Assembly: GCA_040954595.2 (NCBI GenBank) | Contig: CM082595.2 | Span: 124,001 to 188,000 of the forward strand | Length of the DNA: 64,000 nucleotides | Origin: Balanoglossus misakiensis | Taxonomy: Eukaryota > Animalia > Hemichordata | Direction of reading: 5' to 3' | Part shown: positions 25,898 through 63,000 of the stretch, piece by piece | Layout of the letters: every line of letters begins with the position of its first letter | Position numbering within the stretch: position 1 is the first letter of the stretch | The notes under the pieces: generated by a model | Databases searched by the model: none | The model's input: only the letters and a program-made list of their open reading frames with translations | Told to the model about the DNA's origin: nothing | Position numbers and translations under genes: made by a program

Positions 25898-28336
25898 TTA
25901 CTTACTGCTACGCAGACTTTTAAAGGTGTCCACCCAATTTGACGATTTCTTGTAGAAGACAGGCGGGTATCCAAGTTGGGCGTTGACCGCAACCCATTGA
26001 CCACCAGTAACATCTGTGTCGTTCCACAGGTAAACCCAGTCGTCATCGGGGAGATACAGCGTCCGGCTGGTCTGGTCTGCGTCCAAGACGGGCGCCACCA
26101 AGAGGTCGCGTCCGTACAGGTACTGGTAACCGATGTTGTATGTTTCGGCGTCATCATCGTAGTGGAGAAAGAGGGGACGTTGAGCTGGGATGCTTTGGTT
26201 GACGTGTTGTGCCACGACTTCCTTCGAGTAGTCAACAAGCGCATGGTGCAGCTGGGTCAAGCGGGCGAATTTTCGCAAAGTTCCATCGCTGTCGTAGTAC
26301 TGCCAATTTTCATCTGGCCTGTTCCCTTCGTGTGTGCGCATCATCGGGGTGAAGACGGCCATCTCGCCGGAGCGGAGGAGAAGTTCTTCCGTGCGAGCGA
26401 AGCCGAAGAGCGCCGTATACCCGCCGATATCGAAGTGGGTAAGCCCCGCCCCGAGCACGGCCATGGACAATGCTGCAGGGATGACGGATGGGAGACCATC
26501 TCCCCAACTGAAATCAACAAACTGATCACCCGCCCACATCATGGTGCTGTACTTCTGCGTTCCTGTGTAACCAGCTCGCATCCAGTAGAGGATTTCGCCC
26601 AACTTGCCACTTTCTTCCACGGCTTCTCGATTCATCCTCGCCCAGATGTACGGCCACTTGTTGTGGAGTTCCTCCGCTGTCTCTCCGCTGTGGAACATGA
26701 CATTCTTCGTGGGTAGGTACTCCCCGAAGTCTGCCATCCACCCGGACAAACCCAGATCGATCATATTCTTCTTGATGACTTCGTCTTTATACCAATTATA
26801 AGCAGCGGGGTTCGTAAAGTCGATCGTTCCGCAGAAGAACTCGCCGAAATCCGCCACGTAAGAGTCGTTTTCGGGAGTTTTAACAAAATAGCCATTCTCG
26901 TCGGCTATTTTGAAGAGATCGCCCTCCCTGTTCAAGTACGGATTGATGTACGCCAAAACTCCAATTCCGCGCGCTTTCAACTTCTCTATCTCTGTGTCCA
27001 GGTTGGGATACTGCTCTTGGTTCCACTTCCAGTTCCAGAACAGCCTCCGACCGAAGGAAGTCGTGATTCTTCCCACCCAATCTTGAATCCAGACGGCGCT
27101 CACTTCGATGCCGTATTTGTCTGCCTGGTCGATGTACTCTAGCATTGCGTCCGTGCCTCCCTGGATCCCGAGCACGGCTCCGTTGTAGAGCCAATCGGGC
27201 ATGGCCGGCATGGTGCCCAGCAGGTTACTCACCTTCTGTACCACCCCCAGCATCGTCGGTGCGGTGCCGAAGTAAATCTTCCCGGGAGTGTTGGTCCACA
27301 CTTCCAGCTCATGAAAGTACTCGTTACGAAAGTCCAGCACCGAGTACACCGATGTGTTGAAGTGACAGAAGAACTTGCGGGAGGACACAAACGTCGGTTC
27401 TGGGTAATATGTCGAATGGTAGTCGCCGCCGCCACCGTCGTTCTGGTCAGCGTAGAAGGTGGTTAGCGTGCTCTTATTCCGACCGACGCCCTGTTCTCGC
27501 GTCCACAGCGGGAAATCATGCCCACGTAGATCGAAGTACGAAAACTGCTCGCCGCCGCCATATACATGTTCGTCAACTTCGGCCAAAACGCGGATCCAGT
27601 ACCGGTTGATGACGTCAGAGGTTTGTGTGAACTCTGCGACGTTATTGCCGTCAGCATCGGTACCAAATTTCACAGTGGTCTAGAAAGATGAGTAGATACA
27701 TGATTAAGGGGATTTAAGTTGTTAAGGCCAGGGCTTTAAAAGTTTGAGAAACGACAATAACAATCGCAGTCAAACGAAATTAAAAGTCGTTAAAATGTAC
27801 ACGCCCGGAGCAAACCAGCTATGGGGTTCTTCATCACTTGTTGATTATCACCTACTTGACCACAGGTGATGCAATTTGTCTGGGATTGTAGTGTCGGTCG
27901 CAAACCCTTCTTGTTTTTCTTGAGTGAATGAAACCCCGGGGTCAGCCCAGTCACGTGACACTTTGACGTGCTCTTGGATAATTTAAGACGCCAAAGTTCA
28001 GCCCCAATAAAAATGTCGCTGCCCTCTCACCTGATATTCGGCATTTCGGGAAAAATTCACGAAATAGTCCGAGGATTGTTGGGTGACGTTGAACTCAGTG
28101 AGGCCAATGCGCTCATCCATGTACTCAGAGATCACAAAATTTCCCAGAAACTCTTCGATATCGGCTACTCCGTTGCCGGCGTAGAGAAAAGGCGATTCGG
28201 TGGTGTGACTTATCAACGTGACGTCACCCAGGGATACGGTCAGCGTCGTCTCTGTATAATCAACAACGAAGTTGCCACTGGCAACGGAGCAGTAGCAGAC
28301 CACAAGCAAGAGGGTGTGGTACAACCTCATAGCCAT
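25898..28336 (-). CDS. yihQ: Glycoside hydrolase family 31 sulfoquinovosidase (YihQ-like) with N-terminal signal peptide
   Basis: Exon 28336-28031 (102 codons, beginning with the signal peptide MAMRLYHTLLLVVCYCSVASG) splices in phase 0 to 27679-25898, giving about 695 aa. Motifs follow E. coli YihQ as recalled: GEQFSYFDLRG, EQGVGRNK, GIQGG, WIQDWVGRITTSFGRRLFWNW, WMADFGEYLP (nucleophile), MMWAGDQ (acid/base), DIGGYT and MMRTHEGNRP. Confidence 0.92.
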
Positions 28337-42419: not shown

Positions 42420-44112
42420 TGTTGATAATCTTGCATACACTATCTTATTTTTAAGGAGTGTACTTAATACATGAGGGTTCACCCGAAACTAGGAAAGTAA
42501 GTGATCAGGAATTCTTGTGACAACAGCATATTTTATGCGAATTATGTTTTTACAGTACCGTTAAATAATTCAATGCATTTTAGCCATAGAAAATTCATTA
42601 TGCGCACATTTACAATTATAGAAGTTGTTCAAACTTTTAAACTGATCATTCAAGAATATTTTTATAATTTAAAAACTTTTATATTTCTTGAATCAATTAG
42701 GATAATTATATGTGAAAGAGATCTTGTATCAAGACTAGAGAATTGATTTCAGGAGTTCTACAAATTTTATCGGATTATTTTGATATGTGATGCAACTACC
42801 ATCACATAATCAGGGTTCAGAAGAATGCAGGTAGTTGTACCTTTGCAAAAGCATATCCCTCCAAACCAGTACTCAGATTAGAATAGCATATGCTTCAATC
42901 AGTCAGTGCAATAATTGTGCCTTTGGCAAAGTGAGTTTTTCGGATAATGTATAGATGTTTATAATTGTACATGAATTGTATGCATACACACAAAGCTTGG
43001 TTTCTTGAATTAATTTTCACCTGAGAGCTCACCTGTCTTATGCACTGTAGGAGGGTGATTTTTGCCTCAGTTCAAGATGTGTCCGTCTTATCCTACTCTT
43101 TATTATCGAGCCTATTCTTTCTGTAAACAATAGCATTATGTCAAAAAGCTGAAAAAACTTACTAAGGGTAAAATGTTTGTATTTTGTGTGAAGTTATACT
43201 GTCTTACAACACTGGAGAATGTACAAGTTTCTTGCACTTTGTAATGTATTCTTCATTCCAATCTGTTTTTAAATAAAACATTTTTATGATCAAGATCAGG
43301 TTTTAGCAGACACAGATCTCGTTCATTCTTTTATCATACCAGTTTCTCAAAAATAACACAGTCGCAAGAGAGTAACAGCTTTTAGATATTTAATGATTAC
43401 GATATATGCCTTTTGAAATAGACATCAATATTGTGCACACCATTCTCGATTTTTCAACATGGTGGCTGAAAATAATTTATACTTGGATGTATTCAATATG
43501 TTCACACTTACAGTCATGATCTGTTAAAATGCACACTTAATTAGTAATCGAAAATCAAAAATAATGACACAGAATAATTAACTCTATGTATTAGTAACGT
43601 CTCTGTGTTAATTAATGCCCACAATTGAATTTTTTTTCTGTTAAATCTAGTTATACAGATGCAATGTTGCCATGTTGTCAATTTAAAGCAGAAAAGTTAA
43701 ACTTACATGATGAAAAGACAATAAATGAAGTTAAATGTACAATTGTGTTAGTATGGAAGGACAAGGATGACAGTTTTCATAAAGTCGTTATTAAACGGGT
43801 CGCCAGTTTAGTAAATGACATTTAAAGGTATACAATCACCTCTAATTATCAAATATCCATATATGGTCAAATAGTGTGTGAAAGTCATTGAATGACCACT
43901 TTGGGGCACACTATTTTCAGTGGCCATTCACCGGAATCTGATTGGTTAGATCCAAAGTAGCCATGTTGACTGTTCATAAATTTGCATAAGGGACTATTTA
44001 CCTGTAAGTTTTGCCTGTACTTTGTCAGCTCTAAATATTGATGTTAAACACACTCAACTGTAGTCGCTATACTCTTTGGGTACCTGACATGTAAATGCAG
44101 GTTCATTGTCTT

Positions 44113-47100
44113 TTAAACAACACAGCATGAGTCCCACATGGCAACTGTAATTTCAAATTCATCTTGTACGAGATAAACTGCAGCTGTGTCTCCTGGAAAC
44201 ATACAAAAACAAAGAAATAGAAAATAATAAATACATTGCAGTGATCTGATAACTGAATATAGCGAAAGCGGTTTTCGGGTCTTTGATGTGATAATCATAT
44301 CCATCTTATGGTTATTTTTTTTCCGTCAACATTGTGGGGAGTTTGTACAGAAATACATATTAATACTCACCGACCCAAACACCACTGAAAGTTTCAACAT
44401 GACCTAAACCATCTGCTGGAAATGAAATGTCTTCTGCCAGAAATTGTTCCCTGAACAACGGTGACACAGAGTAAGACAGATCCTGTTCCAGGTACAGGTA
44501 AGCACGCCCTCTTCTGCCAATACCTATGCTTCTTGTCGAATTGACGCCGATAAAGTTCGACACTGATTGTACCAAACCTGTTGTAACAACCAGAGGTATT
44601 ATTTGGCCTTCTTTAATGAATATTACTTTGTTTTAAATATCCATTAAGTACAATTGTCTCCTTAATTTTGCTGAAGTATACCTATCAGGTGAGATGGGTT
44701 GGCTTTGCACTTAGATACTATAAGTTAAACATGCAGTTACAGAAATGATTCTTAATGAGACCAGAAAAGTAGTTCCTAAGCTGCTCAAATATTACTTACC
44801 GTACCAACCCTGCGAGTTCCTTGTGAAACACCTGTAGAAAAGAGCAAGTTTGATGTCATTAATGTATTTAATTTTTCGTCATGTTGTACTTTCAAAAATT
44901 GTTTTTACTAGTTGGTTATAATGTACAGTATTCAGAATTAATTATGTTAAATTGTGTAAAAAATTTACCTTTGTACCACTGTGGTGTCACAAACGGTGAC
45001 TCTCTCATCCACATCCACCAGGTAAGACCTTTCATAAAACCCTGGAAAAGTGAACAATTTCTCAGTGTTCTGGCAAATGCATTTGTTTGTGATGTCACTC
45101 AAGACAACTTTAGAGGATTGTGGAAAAAATACTTGTCTGACACCGAATGGTTGATTATTGCATTGGATTGAGCAATGAAATCACAAAAACTAACCTGGAA
45201 GTACTTCAGTATCACCGACAATCGCAGTGGTTTCCGTCGTCAGAGCTGTAAGGGTTTTTGAGAAATATCAATATACCAATAGGGCTAGTAGTGTCTCGAA
45301 ACCCGCTTAATGCTGTTCACAGCTATATTTTATTATGTAATGAGCTTGCTGTATTCAACAGCTATCAGTTTCATTTCTGACGCTATAATAAATTGGTGAT
45401 ACATATAAAATAGTCTGAAAGGAAAAGGCTGTGTGACTTACCACTGATGCTATCCATGGTGAGTGTAAATGATTCCAAAGGAAGAAAAAATGTATTTCCA
45501 TCAACCGAGTTCCACACGAGTTCAACAACACCCACGATTATGTTTGGTTCCACATCTGTTTTGTAACTGGAATCGATGGTCAGGTTTATGCAGACTCTGG
45601 ATTGTTGGGTCAACGATATATTGTGCATCTACAGAGAAAATGAACAAAACATACCCAATCGTTATCCTAAATTGAATGTTTACAACATAATTCAACACAC
45701 ACGCAACTTGGATAGAAAATTATATTGTAGCTTAAATTTACAGTATTTACTTTACCTTGATCGTCTTGGAGAAGATCTCTGAATGAAGGGACGGTGGCAA
45801 TGTCATTGCGACCCATTCTGTTAACACTACATCGGTCACAACTCCTGGCAGGTACATTTTGCATGAAACACTATATGCTTCACTCTGAGATACGGAACTG
45901 TGTATTATACTTGTGCAAAGAGTTACAGTACTGCTGCAATGGGAAACATTAATATATTTATATCAATTGTAAATATTCAGGTATATCAATTACTGCATTG
46001 TTTCTTGATTGCAAACGTTTTCTGATTATTTTAAGGAAACCTTTTTGGACCAACTTACCCTGGACGTACATTAGTGCTGGGTGAAACAGTCAAGTCGTGA
46101 AATCTCAGATTGGGATCCCCATCAATGTTTGGCGGAGACATCGTAGGCAAACTGGTTGTGGTTGGGGTTGAAGTCACTGATGTTGTCGTTGATTCTGTGG
46201 TCGCAGAACCAGTTGTATAGACTGGTGCTGTTGGTGTAGATGTTGTGAGAACATTGGTTGCCGGTGGCGCTGTGGTAGGCGCTGGGTATGTTGGCCTAGA
46301 TGTTGGTTGGACGCTGGTTGTCGTTGGTGTTGTAGTTATCCCTGGTGCTGTCGTTGATACTGTGGTGGTCGCAGAACCAGTTGTATAGACTGGTGCTGTT
46401 GGTGTAGATGTTGTGAGAACATTGGTTGCCGGTGGCGCTGTGGTAGGCGCTGGGTATGTTGGCCTAGATGTTGGTTGGACGCTGGTTGTCGTTGGTGTTG
46501 TAGTTATCCCTGGTGCTGTCGTTGATTCTGGGGTGGTCGCAGAACCAGTTGTATAGACTGGTGCTGTTGTCGGTGTGACTGCAGTTTGCCCCGGGGTTGA
46601 TGGAGCAGACGTTGACCGGGCACTCATCGTTGCTGTTGTTTTCAGCAGCGTTGTTGCCATGAGATATTTAATGGTGATGGTAAATGGTAGAGAAATAGAA
46701 CAAAATTAGATCATGGAACACATGCAAAATACACATTGTAGAAATATTCATTCAGACAGGGATTTATATTGATATGGACGTTGTACACAGATCATTGAGA
46801 GAATAAATATAAAGATTGACTCACTAGGAATGTCACAAGTATCAACAAACTGCACGTCACTGGTGATATATGAATCTGGGATGATTTCTGTGATGTTGAA
46901 CTCTGCCGTTACACCTGTGCTTGCGATGGCTTTAACGACAAAGGGAGGTGCCATTGCGGAGGGGCTTTCATAATATCCATTGCGATCCAGCACCATGGGC
47001 ACCCAGGTTCCGTCCACCAGCACTTCCATTCCGACATTGGGGTAACGGATATAAACAGGTTTGATGTCAAACCCATATATGCTAGAACCAGATCGAAACT

Positions 47101-49968
47101 GCAAAAAGGAGTGAAATAAGGGTTATCCATCAAATACAAGTAAGATGTATTGGGTTGGGTTTAAATGGGAACTCATCTCTGCATCATATATATCCACATT
47201 GCAGGGGCCAGTTAGTCATAACAGATGATCTTCCGGTCATGTTCGCCAAGTGACACAAGCAAAGCTTTGGTGCAGAGATTAACAATAATTCTAACTTGTA
47301 TGTCTTTTAAGACAATGGGCCAAGTGTTGTTTGTACTGTGTCACATGAGACGTTTTATGGAGTTCGAAAAATGCTCCTTCGTGACAGGTACCTTAAATTT
47401 GATGTTGTCCACGTATGGGCAAGGAACGACTCGCCAGGTAATAGAATCTGGTATTGTCGTCACTATGGTGTAGTATATTTCTTCTGGTATAAGAAGATCT
47501 GTCGGTTCTCCGGCCTTATAATTTTCCACAATCGTGAGAGTGGCGTTTCCAACAGGTCCTGTAACCTCGATACATTGTCCACAGTTCTGAAAGTCAAATG
47601 GCGGGAATCTGTTAGTCTCTGAAGGCTTCTAAATTCGACAAGTCTCCCTCTTTCATTCATTCATTCTTGAAAACCCACATGGATTTTATTTACTACATCA
47701 AATGCATCCAAGTCTAGTAGAATTTCTGTTTCAATTCTGGACAACTCTACCGTACATTACCAATCATTGGAATTTTTATAACTTAATGCCTACCTGGCCA
47801 TCTAGGAGATATCCAATACCAGCGATATAGGGACTCATGTCAGTGATGTCGCACCCACCACCGCTGAGAGATCCAGCCGGTTTCGCAAGTCCTGCGTATG
47901 GTCCCCCTAAATCATCACATGTGACAGACACCGTCTCTGTATAAAACAAACAACAGGGATAAAAATGTTTTTAAAGATCTTTTCCCGTAGCTGTTATCCG
48001 TAATATAAGATACATAATCGTATGTCGGTTAGTCGAGTACTTCAACGTTAAAAGTAGGCTATACTCAATCAATCAATCAATTAAGTTTAAAGTTGCATTT
48101 TACACTAGTCGAGTACAAGTACACTTTATAGTCCTGCGTGAATACAATAAACATTAATGGAGAATGATGATCACAGATATAACATCGAACTTTGGTTTCC
48201 GAATTTAGAGTCGTGCATTATGACTATATAGGCCAACAGCTGACTACATTCAAATTAAAAGTCATTTTATATATTCACAAAAACGTTACTGACAGCACGA
48301 ATCGCACAATAGATCGTTATCGGCACGAGAAATAAAACTATTGACAAAAGGCGGCCTCAGAATTGCAAGCTGATCGAATTTGTCGATTTGATCGACGAAT
48401 CCAATAAGAGGAAAAGCATTAAAGCCTCTTTCTACGACTTTCCAGACGTGTTCTTGTTTCTTTCATAAACGGGGAAACAAAATCTCCTTTGTGTGTATTT
48501 CATGGTTGAGAAGAATGGTGACTGGTATTGATTCAAAAGATGGATTTTAGCTCGTTAGTTTTTATGCAAACATTACTGCAGGTAATACAATTGGTATATT
48601 GTTAAGCCCAACATGATTTTTGTGGCGGTACATTTTGTGTGATAAAGTTCAGAATATGCAACTAATTAGCCATTTCTTTGTTCAGGTGTTTATTTGTGGT
48701 GGAATAAAATCAATTTGATTCATAATTGCTTGGCGTTTCCTCGCTTCCAGAATCAATCAAAAAATGAAAATGCATAATCTTTTCCTGTGGTGCCACATTT
48801 CCCTTAAATTGATTTGTTGTAAACCGGTCTTTCGTGGTGGTGTACAAATTCTTGAAATGTAGGTGGTTGCAAATCTCTTGAAAGTATGGTCAGTCTGCAA
48901 CACCTTATTTTGCTTTCTTATATAAGAAACCAATGTTCTAACAGTAGGATGGTATATGAGATACATCTGATACATCTATTAATCATCACCTTATTGAATG
49001 AGTGACAAAGTTAATATAAGAGAGAGAAAGAAAATGGCACGCTTTCTGTAATGAAACCCCACATGTTTGTTTGTAAAAAAATAAAGATAATTTTCCTCTG
49101 GCATGTTCATTGGATCAATACTGTGGTCAATATATTGACGTCTTATCAACAGAAAGCTTTTTAACGGAAGTAGGTGTCATAAACGCATAGTCAAAATCAT
49201 CAACAACATCGACTAAGAATGAAGCTGGTGTCATCATGAGTACATCGTACGCGTGTAACATGTTCAGATTTGGGAATGAAAATAGCAGGAGAGAGAAAGG
49301 AACAAAGGCTTTCGGTTCACCAATATCCTGGACACCCAAAATACATCAAAATCCATCTGGACCAGCTTTATGAAAGCCGTTTCCTACCTTTAAATTAAAT
49401 TTTGAACATATACGAAATATAAATGTAAATATCTGTTTATCTCAAAATTAAGTTTTACATTAATAGAATATCTCCTAATTTTCTCTGAATTATCTTAATT
49501 TAAGCAAACTATTGACACACACGATATTTAAAAACAGGATTAGCGATTTTCGAAACCCTAAAATGGGATTTAAAAATGACAGTACACACATCTTTCAGAT
49601 TATTTTGATCATTGCAGCTATCTGTTCTGCGGGGTGTTTTTTCTTACCCAAATTCCCCTTTTAAGACCTCCAAAAACACTTGCAGTACTATACATGTTGA
49701 TGATACAGAGACAAAATTCATAGAGTTGCTCATTCTTATATAGTTCTTTGGTGTAAAAAACATTTGACCAAGAAAGTTGGGATTAAAAATATGCTGTCGC
49801 GAACCTTAAATGGTACTGCACTTTTTCTTCTCCAGAAAACAAGCAGTTTCTTAGTTACAACGTGTTACAGATGTCGAAATGACCAATCAATTACTGACTG
49901 ATGAAGAAACTACACTCACCGGCAAACCAAGAAAATAACAGCAGTAGTGACAAAAACAAGCTTGCCAT
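44113..49968 (-). CDS. Secreted protein: signal peptide + expansin-like module (DPBB + CBM63) + Thr/Pro-rich mucin-like stalk + uncharacterised C-terminal region
   Basis: A phase-consistent exon chain runs 49968-49920, 47936-47794, 47586-47392, 47098-46825, 46632-46059, 45897-45756, 45628-45442, 45245-45195, 45041-44969, 44831-44800, 44577-44371, 44192-44113. Expansin-like motifs are GGGC, CGQCIEVTGPVG, ITWRVVPCP, FRSGSS, RYP...DGTWVPM and SDVQF. Confidence 0.8.
46185..46569 (-). repeat. Coding tandem repeat, 168-bp (56-aa) unit, about 2.3 near-identical copies
   Basis: TCGCAGAACCAGTTGTATAGACTGGTGCTGTT recurs at 46201, 46369 and 46537; the unit encodes TAPVYTTGSATT...NVLTTSTP. Confidence 0.95.
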
Positions 49969-57556: not shown

Positions 57557-59289
57557 CGTATGTACTGGTTTCCCGTCTTTGTCAAAGTGCGACTGGAAAG
57601 AGCTGATCAAGCTCTTTATATGAGTTCATTGGCATCGATGACATCATGTGTGCACGTGTAAATGTTTTGATTTTCGCCAACATGCTGAGACTTGCATCAA
57701 GTTTGGTTGAAAGTTATTTCTTTACTCGGGATGCGATCTTGTCCTGACCGGTGAGGGCGATGATAGCATCAACTTGACTGTGTGTGCATGTACACCCTGT
57801 ATTTCTGAAAACGATAATTTAAAGGCAGTATGAGTATAAAGGGGCTGGCGGAGCTTTAAAGGTGTCCAACGGATTCTCAATGATTGATCTGTATGGAATC
57901 GTAAAACATAGCGTGACTCTTGGCGTAAGCACGATTCCCACAGCGCCGTAAACAGTAATAAAATCGAAGTTAGTGCATTGTCGTGATCACATATATCCCC
58001 CATAAATGCTTCCCAGGTGAGTTGTCAGGCGTTTACCGTTTGTAAAAACCCACGCTGGCTGTCGTAAAATGGCTAGAGCTCGAGTGAACAAAACGGGTCT
58101 ATTTTGATATTGTAATGTAAGCATCGGCTCTGAAACAACAAGCGATAAGGACACTGAAGTGACCCTTCTTTATCAGTTTCGCTTCCCGAATCTCTACTTT
58201 GATACGGGTACACTGACATGGATAGTGTTGGGTTTCCGTGACAACAGAGCTACATTAATATTATTCAGGTGATTAATGTAGTTGCCCCCGTTTCTTGCGG
58301 ATTGGAAAACCAGTTCCAACATAATAATGTACATGTGCTGCAGGAAAACACGGCTAATCCTTTTCTTATCAGCACAGGGGTAAAAAAATCAAAGTTGAAG
58401 TTATCTGATACTTTATTGTTAGTCATTTTATGATAGTGCTCTTGAAATACTATGGATGTTGTGGTAACAAAAGGAAAAAGAAAATTGAGGGAGAAGATTA
58501 CGCGAATCTGTATTAATTTTACTAATCACTAATGCACCAAAGGGATTGATCCAAACCCATTAATACTGTGTGCAAATAGAGGCTTATCTGGGTTCCTTAG
58601 GTTTTTCTCGTTGATTGTGAGTTCTATCCTTGGATGTAGCTTTAAGTTTTAATCAAAGGCGCAATGCAGTTATCCCATCCAGGCAAAGCGTGGCATCATA
58701 TCGCCATCTTCAAGGCTTCTTTTCCCATTACGATGGCTGGTGCAATTTTCACAACCAAGGTTAACGAGCTTGGATTTTGAGTATCACTGTGAACTAACAG
58801 CATACAGTCATAATTGCAATTTTGTGTGATAGGAAAAGGAAAAGTGCCACGCACACACAAAGGGGAAGGCAGTAATGACGGAACACAATTAAGAATCCAA
58901 TTTTCAACAAAATTCGTTCCGATGATTTGGCATTCATTCTTGGAAAATTATTACTGCGGGTTTATGACCATGTACCACATATTGTGTCTGCACACACCCA
59001 AGAATAATGCTATACATAAAGCTCGTGATAAAATCACGCTAACCTGGGTAAAAGAATCGTGAAATCACATGACAGCGTGACGTCACTATATTCAGAGAAA
59101 TCCGCAGCTTTAAGTATTTCTCACGCATAGTATGGATGGTTGTATTACTGAGCGGTTGCAGCGCATCGTCTGCTGCCAATGAATTTCAGTGATAGCGCAC
59201 GTGTCAATCGAATATCACTATTTTATTTCTGTACTACACAGGCTAATGCGGTACTCAGATAGCATGTTTTTCTGTCGGGTCGAGGCGAC

Positions 59290-60090
59290 ATGACATCGAA
59301 CGCGAGCGAAGCGGATGCCGAGGCTATCGAGTATGGAAACGCGGTCGCCTGGACCGCTGTGGTGGCGGTGAGCATCGTGCATAACCTCGTCTGCATGCAT
59401 GTCGTCGCCGAGTACACGGAGAAATGGAAGAGCAGTCATATGCTCATCTTCTCGCTGGTGCTGACGGAGTTCTTCAACTTGACCATGCCGCTGGCCATCA
59501 TGTCCATCATGATCGTGTCCAGATCCCAATGGAACACCACCAGCTGCCAGTTTCTGCTGTGGAGCCTGCTGACGTTTCGCGTGGTGGTGGCTCTTCATCA
59601 GGCCTTCCTGGCGCTCGACCGTGTGTGGTTTCTCAAGTGGCCGTCGGCCTACCGAGTGCACTTTGCGGCTCACCGAAGCAGCAAGACAGTGGTCTTCATC
59701 TGGCTGCTGAGCACACTGGCCGGATTCATGCCCATCCTCGGTTGGGAAGACACCCGTAATGCCGACGTTCAAGTCAACGGCAAGTGTCACATCTTACTCT
59801 CCGACATGGGACTCGGTTATGCGATCTCGCTGGAGATTCTCCTCTTGCTGACGCTCGGCGTCGGGACGACGTGCATCCTGGCCGCCGTCGTCGGCATCGC
59901 CTGCAAGTCGTCCAGGAACACCAGGCGTCGGCGAAGCTACCGCATCCCGTCCATAGTGATAGAGAGCGAGACGGGAGAAAGAACACCGGCGTTTGATGGA
60001 ACGATTGACGGGCGAACGAGCAACCAAGTCTGTCTACTTGTCTGTGTTCTCGTGCTGACCAACTACCTGGTCGATGGTGTACCTTTCGTT
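59290..60090 (+). CDS. Class A orphan GPCR, GPR153/GPR162-like; first coding exon (TM1-TM6), remainder not found in the window
   Basis: There are six hydrophobic segments. KWK after TM1, WNTTSCQ, LDRVWFLKWPSAYR, IWLLS..MPILGW and the ICL3 motif IPSIVIE...FDG resemble GPR153/162. A donor GTT|GTAAGT lies at 60090. Confidence 0.8.
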
Positions 60091-63000
60091 GTAAGTTATC
60101 TCTTAGTTATCACTCAGGCGTCGCCTGGGTAACAGTCGCTAAGGTAACAGATGAAGGTGCAATTTTTAAGTCTGGAATCTAAAGTGATAAATTGCTGAAT
60201 GTGCAATAATTTAATGTTTGCCTATTTCCGTGTTGAAAGTTCATGCAGATATCCTATTCATAAAATACACAAAATGTGTACTGATGTTTACCAGAAACCA
60301 TCAGTGCATCTACTAATGGACTAACAATGTGCCTACACCGTTGCATGCGACGGTGTTACAGTTCTGTGAAATCCGATCGTGAAATCGACACAGAAATCTA
60401 TCAAGGAGAAAAAAACAAATCCTGCGGCTATGACTTTGCACGGAATATGACTACAAGTTGTTTTTGTGACATATGTAGCCACAATAATGAAACCAGTTTA
60501 GAAAACTAGTCGTCATTGAATGAAAAAATGTAATAATCCAAGTTGCATGATTGACACAACGCATCGTTTCGCGTTCGCCTCGGAAATTGCCATTTGAAAA
60601 CCGCAATATATCACACGATATTAACATTCATGACGCGCACGCGTATTTCATAATTAATCTACCGAGTCAATCAATGCAGAAGTTCACATACGCGTGAGAT
60701 CTTCGTGGAATTGTGATCGGTTTCGGCAACGGCTATTGTTCCGCTGGACAGTACTAATCAACTCAATGAAGTGACCCTTCAATAATTCACCTGCTTGTAA
60801 ATTACTCTCATTTCTCTTCTCACAAAGACGAATACACAAGCGGATCATGCCAGATGGGCGTGCGTGGGTGATGACGCGTCGCCCATGGCAACCATGCACG
60901 CGTCTGGGGTCATTAATGTATTTGTACACATATCGGCAATGAAAACGTCCCTGCCCGGTCGCATAATTTGATGTATGCTGTGAAAAACGACATGGATATC
61001 TTTACTTCATGTGGTGCGGGTTTATTTTCCATCGCTTTTATGCCCTCTCCCTACCGCCTCATTTCTATATCTGTCTGAGAGAGGGAACACTGTTCACCAC
61101 TTACAGATAAGGCACTGCATCAACGTCACACAGGCATGATCGATACAATGAAAACTTACATGTCTCGAGGCTTTTATCTAAGACACTTTGATATCCCTTG
61201 ATATCAATGTTCGACCTTTGATATTTCCAGTAAGAGTCACGCATACAGAGTTTAAAGGTAGCTTGATCACGTGTCCCTGAAGGAAAATACTGTTCGTGTG
61301 CCGTATCGCTGACATTAGGCAATCGTGTGTCGTATACACTATTGATCATGATGACACATTTAATTTGTATGACGCTACGATGTCATATCGAGCACAGGTT
61401 TGAACAATGCAATGTTCGCCACTCAATGAACCGGTACGGTATCTATATACTAATAGCAAAGTTGTCTTTCATGTAAAAGATTCAGTTCTAAAATGAGCAT
61501 AATCGATTAAGTTTCATCATACCAGGGTCAGTATGTCCTGTGTAATACTTGCATACTAGTATAATGGTCAAGTATTAAATATAGTTAATGTTACTTGAAC
61601 CATGCAACGTTTTTGTGCCAACCGGGAAAAAATCGTGAAAAGTACTCGACGGGGTCCCTTTCTGCTTCATTTACATCGCAAATTCGAACCTTGTGACGCA
61701 AACCACTCTCTAGATAACAAAGTAAGTGAATTTCGGCTCCATTAAAGAGAGAAGAATTTTATTTCCAGGCAAGTAGGCAATAATTACGCTTGAGGAAACA
61801 CGGCCACAGCCAACGGTACATATTGTGAAGAAACACGACATTGCAAGTGATCTACTTGAGAAATGCTGAAGCCACAAACCATGGCAAATTTCCATAAACT
61901 ATATTGTGATCTGTCGTAGGGGAAGTGAAACGGAAGCCTTTGGTTCCACGTCATAATTTCTGGATTTTAATGGCATGCCGTTTCTATTTTCGCTATTCTT
62001 TTATGAACGTCGCCATTTCTTTAGATATTGACAAATAATGAGTTCGGGTCATCTTATCCCGAAGACGTGTCTTCAAAAAGTTCAGTTGCATTGACCTTTG
62101 CAGAGAAACTATATGTTCGTGCCTAAACAAGTTCAAGGGTAAATATAACCAAGGTAATTTGTATGGATATCGACTAAGGAATCGTGCCGAAGCTAAATAG
62201 AGAAAATGCAATAAGTCGACGCAAATATGCCTTTCATTCAATATGCAGATTTCCAATCCAGACTAGTAAAACTGAATCAGTGAATGTCACATTAAAATGC
62301 CATTTCTGACAATGGGCGCTTTAAATGGCCAAGGTTATATCTCGAAAAAGCTAACACCTTCAAGCTGCATTCGTACAATAATTGTTTCATTTCTGTCAAG
62401 CACGGGCTTTGGATTCGCGCAATGCAGTTAATTTGATTTTCATATACTGATTTCTACCGGGAATTAACGAGCATGTTTTAATATGCTAATTATATTCATG
62501 GTTGATACAGTAAGGGGAGAATTACCCATAATTGCTATATCGAAAATACACACAACAGGACCTTTCCGATTAACAGTTTCGTGCATCCATCAATTTCAAA
62601 AAATATTCAGGTTTTTGCCCTTGGCAGTTATGCATGTTGTAAACTGGATTCACAAATGTAAAATGTCAGGTTTGACGTCAATGCTATATTTCAAATATCA
62701 AAACACCTAAAAGCTTTCCACACGACACCCAAGTCAAGGCTGTCACTGTGGAAGAACTTCTCTGTCTTGAATAAAAAATAACACATTTACTCCGTGGCCG
62801 TAAGCTCTCTATGAGCGATAAGAGTGTATGGTCCCCATTTTTGCAAATCAAAATGCACCGGAAATTAAAAATAGTGAGAGAAAGTACAATATTCTTTTGA
62901 GAAAACTTGTAACAAAGACAGTTGGTATTCTACGTATGCAGGGTACTGATGACTGACTTAGCACATCTGGTCATGTGATCAGACTGAGCCAGTTTGGTTA

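Follow-up and report, generated by a model that had tools for sequence, protein, structure and literature searches.

A probable pseudo-expansin with a mucin-like stalk encoded by a predicted 12-exon gene of the hemichordate Balanoglossus misakiensis

Two-domain expansins of the microbial EXLX type, such as Bacillus subtilis EXLX1 (2bh0, 3d30), those of Clavibacter (4jcw), Talaromyces (7wvr) and Streptomyces (9ms5), and the proteins grouped in the NCBIfam family NF041144, carry a signal peptide followed by a DPBB domain and then a CBM63 domain. According to the accessible text of PMC5072189, Asp82 of the first domain is required for loosening, the D82A and D82N variants being inactive, and an aromatic triad of the second domain carries the binding to cellulose; in that of bioRxiv 637728, a bona fide expansin is defined by the Asp in domain 1 together with the aromatic triplet in domain 2. 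Here we analyse a gene found in a 64,000-nucleotide stretch (the window) of Balanoglossus misakiensis (NCBI GenBank assembly GCA_040954595.2, contig CM082595.2, positions 124,001 to 188,000 of the forward strand), the predicted product of which shares with these proteins the signal peptide, the domain order and the spacing. In contrast to them, it has none of the Asp82, Trp126 and Tyr157 sites, shows Glu instead of Asp71, is fused to a mucin-like stalk and a C-terminal region of 271 residues, and is encoded in 12 exons.

Animal expansin-like genes are already in print, from a sponge, a sea anemone, bivalves and a tunicate, and what follows refers to the accessible text of the corresponding papers. 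In bioRxiv 637728 such genes are reported in bivalves and Oikopleura and flagged as possible contamination, and it was left undecided there whether the few animal annotations correspond to genes or to contaminants. A yoaJ-like gene is described in mesocytes of Spongilla, where it marks cells rich in polysaccharide hydrolases (PMC10176882), and an "Expansin-YoaJ" of Exaiptasia that bears a chitin-binding domain is increased in the adhesive pedal disc (PMC6626399). One transcript of whelk egg fluid annotated as EXLX1 is listed as bacterial (PMC10913743). Compared by description only, the proteins of Exaiptasia (Aipgene19685), Spongilla, bivalves and Oikopleura have in common with ours their animal source, a two-domain module, stated for Exaiptasia (Barwin-like plus pollen-allergen domain), and a classical secretion; the chitin-binding domain of Aipgene19685 has no counterpart seen in our protein. 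Nematode expansin-like effectors and a whitefly EG45-like protein are also animal expansin-related products, argued to be transferred and differing in architecture (PMC11800479), in such a way that the nematode proteins show another domain order and the whitefly one only the DPBB, whereas here both domains appear in the canonical order. A literature search, limited to papers open without subscription, recovered no animal expansin lacking Asp82, no stalked form and no description of an architecture like the present one.

Gene model and the expansin-like head

The gene model was built from splice signals and reading frame, and all coordinates are positions in the window. As listed below, 12 exons with GT-AG ends and compatible phases run along the minus strand from the ATG at 49968 to a stop codon at 44110 (the frame ends at 44113), giving an unbroken frame of 659 residues with four parts: a leader (residues 1-16), an expansin-like module (around 17-217), a stalk (221-388) and the 271-residue C-terminal region.

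49920..49968, minus strand: exon 1, ATG and predicted signal peptide (residues 1-16), donor GTGAGT
47794..47936, minus strand: exon 2, residues 17-64, probable start of expansin domain 1, with C23 and C45
47392..47586, minus strand: exon 3, residues 65-129, DPBB core, with E85, Y87 and L96 at key sites
46825..47098, minus strand: exon 4, residues 130-221, CBM63-like domain 2, with Y137, G138 and N169 at key sites, and C217
46059..46632, minus strand: exon 5, mucin-like stalk (residues 221-388), then start of the C-terminal part
45756..45870, minus strand: exon 6, C-terminal region
45442..45628, minus strand: exon 7, C-terminal region
45195..45245, minus strand: exon 8, C-terminal region
44969..45041, minus strand: exon 9, C-terminal region
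44800..44831, minus strand: exon 10 (32 base pairs, bp), C-terminal region
44371..44577, minus strand: exon 11, C-terminal region
44110..44192, minus strand: exon 12, holding the stop codon, with no hydrophobic anchor at its end

Introns fall behind the signal peptide, within domain 1, near the border of the two domains and directly past domain 2, and introns 2 to 11 span 127-293 bp. The 16 N-terminal residues, on an exon of their own, are a predicted signal peptide as judged by hydropathy: the leader is the most hydrophobic 19-residue segment of the protein, all others being at or below 1.21. The acceptor of exon 5 (46633) is the first AG past a pyrimidine tract, yet weak. No paralogue of the gene was found within the window.

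The head of this protein is a true expansin relative. When single exons were scanned against NCBIfam and Pfam, NF041144 (expansin_EXLX1) was matched by exon 3 (E 5.9e-7, 29 bits, positions 40-106) and by exon 4 (E 2.5e-5, 23.7 bits, positions 108-193), in both cases below its cut-off of 100, and Pfam gave no expansin match, its only one being a chance hit to Gp7_helical (E 0.07). A profile was also made from 120 microbial expansins, which were the best 120 of 239 matches to one bacterial query and among which animals, plants and fungi are not represented. The joined module scored 58.6 bits on it, where the top-scoring of 2000 shuffles reached 8.4 and the reversed sequence 1.0; a 60-bit alignment covers residues 64-242 in one piece, and the highest identity to any of the rows was 29%. 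A protein atlas queried with a microbial expansin gave three clusters, all under 0.9 and one of them from giant viruses, which were set aside. In a six-frame scan of the window (1662 frames) exons 3 (E 1.5e-8) and 4 (E 0.0011) were the only ones to score, the next frame giving an E of 1.9. Sequence searches of the PDB returned expansins as the top four matches of exon 3 (E 0.025-1), and for exon 4 they placed two cellulosome chains (E 0.22) over the expansin 7wvr (E 0.82). The sole genuine match of exon 4 in a HMMER scan of 1.84 billion representatives was a bacterial expansin (E 4.9e-4); a second one, P0001, was discarded as a repeat artefact.

The structure of exon 4 was modelled in two ways. 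From the single sequence, the predicted local distance difference test (pLDDT) was 59, and the top 10 Foldseek rows were all expansins or domain-2 allergens, none of them with E below 0.001; the best VIA match was the Clavibacter expansin 4jcw, with a Z of 7.6, under the caution line of 8, and a root-mean-square deviation (rmsd) of 3.3 over 78 residues. Led by the microbial alignment, and hence partly circular, the model reached a pLDDT of 95 and template modelling (TM) scores of 0.76-0.84 to EXLX1 and 4jcw (TM 0.84 and rmsd 1.6 for 4jcw). Alignments and models, the folding evidence covering exon 4, point to a DPBB domain 1 followed by a CBM63 domain 2 in the canonical order. Exon 2 alone scored -1.8 bits on the microbial profile (rank 2418 of 2733) and found no expansin among its PDB matches; its place in the gene, together with G32, G43 and C45, which fall on near-invariant expansin columns, makes it a probable part of domain 1.

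The original prediction, made by eye from the letters of the DNA, consisted of a signal-peptide exon and three exons aligned with Bacillus EXLX1. These exons are all present (49968-49920, 47936-47794, 47586-47392 and 47098-46825), with GT-AG ends and matching phases, and the motif pairs quoted with EXLX1 reappear in machine alignments to 2bh0, the alignment holding for exons 3 and 4 and failing for exon 2 alone. A DPBB-CBM63 homology in an intron-rich animal gene is thus upheld by the NF041144 matches, the profile score and the fold of exon 4, the superposition on EXLX1 proposed as a check also being obtained with the alignment-led, partly circular model, and the proposed HMM search, run on single exons, giving matches below the cut-off in NCBIfam and none to expansins in Pfam. 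As for the EXLX1 type, homology is right and the label loose, the protein keeping four cysteines of disulfide-bearing expansins. The end of the protein had been placed at a terminal VQF; exon 4 actually finishes in a strong donor (GTGAGT) and eight further exons lead to the stop, outside the region first proposed, so that the gene exceeds the original prediction in length and departs further from the canonical form.

Numbering of the key residues was transferred from 2bh0 via pairwise and profile alignments. The site of Asp82, an Asp in 118 of the 120 microbial rows, is Leu96 in the pairwise alignments to 2bh0, 9ms4 and 9ms5 and in the profile, and Leu96 also stands where GH45 and lytic DPBB enzymes have their catalytic Asp, the equivalent of Asp82 according to the accessible part of PMC5072189. 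Glu85 is found at the site of Asp71 (Asp in 120 of 120 rows), Gly138 at that of Trp126 (Trp or Tyr in 120 of 120) and Asn169 at that of Tyr157 (aromatic in 116 of 120). Retained are Tyr73 as Tyr87, Trp125 as Tyr137 and Lys119 as Arg131, and Tyr137 is the one aromatic left of the W125/W126/Y157 triplet. The Thr12 and Thr14 sites read K35 and A37, within exon 2, where the alignment is not significant. Five of the seven key sites are lost in the model, against none in 88 microbial rows, one in 28 and two in 4. A further Asp, D94, lies two residues ahead of the Asp82 site, and the isoelectric point (pI) of domain 1 is 4.05.

By contrast, 19 of the 51 columns conserved at 90% or more are retained, mainly Gly, Pro, Cys and Trp; to judge from the sequence, these are the positions that set the fold, which is kept, and the polysaccharide face is not. 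The four cysteines match those of fungal and actinobacterial expansins with disulfides. The model also has both members of an N- and C-terminal Cys pair which is complete in 66 of the 120 microbial rows, wholly absent in 52 and reduced to the second Cys in 2; the co-occurrence in these 66 expansins is likely due to a disulfide clamp that marks a subgroup.

Neither the domain 1 Asp nor the domain 2 triplet on which bioRxiv 637728 bases a bona fide expansin is found here, and the protein is, on its residues, expansin-derived and not a member of the family in the functional sense; the working wall loosener of the original prediction is not borne out. Leu at the Asp82 site is shared by Stigmatella aurantiaca YP_003956816 (PMC5072189), which is bacterial and for which the accessible text of that paper does not mention a lost aromatic triad.

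Stalk and C-terminal region

The stalk, 168 residues long, holds 64 Thr, 29 Pro and 20 Ser, which amounts to 50% Thr plus Ser and 67% when Pro is included. A tandem repeat within exon 5 (46197-46569) has a period of 168 bp (56 residues) and 2.2 copies that are 99% identical. Mucin-like linkers are in general O-glycosylated and extended.

The C-terminal 271 residues are rich in strand-forming residues, with six Cys, three N-glycan sequons and no membrane anchor. Their single exons matched nothing in Pfam or NCBIfam, exons 7 and 11 matched nothing in the PDB, and the Pfam and NCBIfam scans of single exons revealed no hydrolase domain. Three identities suggested by eye, VWD/ITIH (GDPN motif), CARDB and beta-gamma-crystallin, were assayed with profiles made from 6, 19 and 23 domains, respectively, of Chloroflexota genomes. 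Scores were -2.5 bits for VWD, 0.1 for CARDB and -1.3 for beta-gamma-crystallin, no better than shuffles, on small bacterial profiles that could miss remote animal forms, and the three identities are unsupported.

Genomic setting, variation and origin

Exon structure and neighbourhood show that this is a real animal gene. The other genes recognized in the window are the following:

1-22 kilobases (kb): LDL-receptor class A repeats, a DEG/ENaC channel, SCO1 and MTHFR, an ordinary animal neighbourhood
25898..28335, minus strand: GH31 gene with two exons and a signal peptide, best PDB matches to sulfoquinovosidases (YihQ 5aed, E 8.8e-213)
~31.7-42.4 kb, plus strand: gene of an ABCB1/MDR-like ABC transporter, rich in introns, its 3' end facing that of the expansin-like gene
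~52-57 kb, minus strand: REV1-like Y-family polymerase (IMS domains), upstream of the expansin-like gene
59263..60132, plus strand: exon of a rhodopsin-family G protein-coupled receptor (GPCR), upstream of the expansin-like gene

Lying among ordinary animal genes, the gene is not a contaminant. Contigs from two runs, X1 and X2, of one sample that is possibly the source of the window itself, were compared with it. One X1 contig holds exon 1 and everything up to 60 kb, including the REV1-like and GPCR genes, and another holds exons 8-12 and reaches to within a few bases of the last frame of the transporter. Of 40 single-base variant rows, 38 lie in the gene span, and five of these 38 were exonic, against a 34% share of exonic bases (p 0.004; 0.04 without exon 5). 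Four of the five are synonymous (one in exon 2, two in exon 6, one in exon 11), the fifth being F573I in exon 11. Frame-changing indels were found only outside the frame, the extra T at 49967 being part of a T-run just ahead of the start codon, and the sole in-frame indel is a 3-base deletion in the stalk; one intronic row stems from a high-copy repeat. Since exonic variants are few and mostly synonymous, and frame-changing indels stay outside the frame, the gene is under constraint.

Two side observations were made in the same comparison. Between 41 and 60 kb, 25 of the 32 single-base differences of X1 fall in the 5.9 kb of the gene, nearly all of them intronic, and 7 in the 13.1 kb of flanks (p 5e-8), an excess that, in this one sample, could reflect a block of divergent haplotypes or balancing selection acting locally. 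Pile-ups of loose-ended contigs at ~45275-45340, 47315-47350 and 43820-43870 correspond to small dispersed repeats in introns and 3' of the gene.

The original prediction saw in this gene a candidate horizontal acquisition, the second one within about 20 kb. Transfer is not demonstrated and, from the features of the sequence, not recent. A quick tree of 50 rows (the model and 49 of the 120 microbial proteins, no eukaryotes) left the model on a branch of around 10 changes per site and did not place it usefully. Expansin-like genes have been reported in sponge, sea anemone, bivalves and Oikopleura. Any transfer would be old, because identity to the nearest microbial row is only 29%, introns lie inside the module, and the GC content at third codon positions (GC3) equals that of the rest of the gene (0.44 in the module, 0.45 in the C-terminal exons). 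Word-based, HMMER and metagenome contig searches yielded no animal relative: word-based searches among longer proteins gave no homologue from 92 candidates for exon 4 and 12 for exon 3, which by the nature of the search is weak evidence, and none of 84 (exon 4) and 437 (exon 11) pattern matches in metagenome contigs was confirmed. The other transfer candidate was probably the GH31 gene, whose large exon has a GC3 of 0.68 against 0.44 for the expansin-like gene. In the accessible text of bioRxiv 2026.02.11.705467, sulfoquinovosidase is reported across nine animal phyla, in aquatic invertebrates, its tree agreeing in broad terms with that of the species; being a sulfoquinovosidase of this widespread kind, the GH31 gene does not form a transfer cluster with the expansin-like gene, and the proposed pair of transferred carbohydrate-active genes is weak.

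Proposed role and alternatives

We would give an even chance to a role as a secreted glycan tether, for which pseudo-expansin is a probable label: glycans of mucus, gut lining or extracellular matrix would be tethered or cross-linked by a binding module on a likely O-glycosylated stalk, joined to a C-terminal module. The head is likely a binder and not a wall loosener because it has lost Asp82 and two of the three aromatics that stack on cellulose, and a tether or cross-linker would fit because head and tail are spaced by a long, presumably glycosylated stalk, with neither anchor nor catalytic site. The protein would be secreted through its predicted signal peptide, and its two-domain fold held by disulfides among C45, C66, C69 and C120 and by an N-to-C clamp between C23 and C217. 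O-glycosylation, as in other mucin-like linkers, would turn the stalk into an extended spacer. We guess that the ligand of the acidic head (pI around 4.1) is not crystalline cellulose but, for example, chitin or a mucus glycan, bound via Y87, Y137 and R131, and that the C-terminal module binds a second partner. The Exaiptasia protein, with its chitin-binding domain and its increase in the adhesive pedal disc (PMC6626399, accessible text), may offer an analogy in favour of this role.

Several points weigh against it. The C-terminal region matched no family in the scans made, which leaves half the protein unexplained, and both the ligand and the cross-linking are guesses. Among the five losses, that of T12/T14 sits in the poorly aligned exon 2 and is unsure, and the change of D71 to Glu is conservative. 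The accessible text of PMC5072189 proposes, as an untested idea, that the bacterial Stigmatella protein, with its Leu for Asp82, is possibly active via an electronegative patch, and in our protein D94 and a very acidic domain 1 would adjoin that site. The join of exons 4 and 5 was drawn from splice signals, one of them the weak acceptor, the 120 reference rows all come from a single bacterial query, and X1 and X2 may be the very source of the window.

An unlikely alternative, an adjusted form of the original prediction, is that the protein still loosens, in a non-canonical manner, as an accessory secreted in the gut that makes algal walls, chitin or biofilm accessible to hydrolases, with D94 or E85 and Y87 replacing Asp82. 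The Tyr73 site is kept, D94 lies two residues ahead of the Asp82 site, domain 1 has a low pI, the Stigmatella precedent is discussed as possibly functional (PMC5072189), the sponge yoaJ-like gene marks hydrolase-rich cells (PMC10176882), and the gene of a sulfoquinovosidase, a digestive enzyme for algal lipids, lies 16 kb off. However, in the accessible text of PMC5072189 substitutions of Asp82 inactivate EXLX1, two of the three binding aromatics are gone, the single-exon scans gave no hydrolase domain, and an unrelated ABC transporter gene separates the two genes. Quite unlikely, in our opinion, is a protein-binding or defence scaffold in which the disulfide-locked fold has a protein or the surface of a microbe as its partner (pattern recognition) and nothing is left of a glycan-loosening past. 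The whole polysaccharide face is altered while Gly, Pro and Cys positions are retained, offshoots with only the DPBB (papain inhibitor 5ntb) or only domain 2 (pollen allergens) have other jobs, and variants are denser over the gene than in its flanks, as in some host-microbe genes; but this excess is intronic and comes from one sample.

The remaining explanations concern the gene itself. Little credence is given to two genes having been joined, that is, a small expansin-like protein ending past exon 4 and a separate gene for stalk and C-terminal region starting from an in-frame Met near 46660. The frame of exon 4 does read 26 more codons to a stop at 46748, and that of exon 5 holds this upstream Met behind a weak acceptor; on the other hand, the donor of exon 4 is a good one, the phase fits, the intron of 192 bp resembles the others, and no separate signal peptide opens the downstream frame. 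A pseudogene, contaminant or chance match, with the lack of a close relative in the collections searched in its favour, is highly improbable given the unbroken 659 codons across 12 exons, the synonymous bias of the exonic variants, the contig link to the REV1-like gene and a profile score far over the shuffles.

The locus is a clear case of a genuine animal expansin-like gene, with eleven spliceosomal introns, animal neighbours and constrained variation. The label "expansin" in an animal need not imply wall loosening, as here the polysaccharide face is erased and the fold persists, joined to a mucin stalk. Should the same substitutions recur in animal orthologues, the family would serve as a natural experiment on the function of the expansin fold once Asp82 and the triad are gone. 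We further propose, tentatively and with more doubt than for the tether itself, that animals hold an old, so far unrecognised lineage of expansin-derived proteins which gave up the loosening of cellulose and became, through exon shuffling, secreted glycan binders of mucus or matrix carried on a stalk, in this case with a C-terminal module that belongs to no known family; if true, a tool of plant walls would now serve animals as an extracellular adhesive or lectin.

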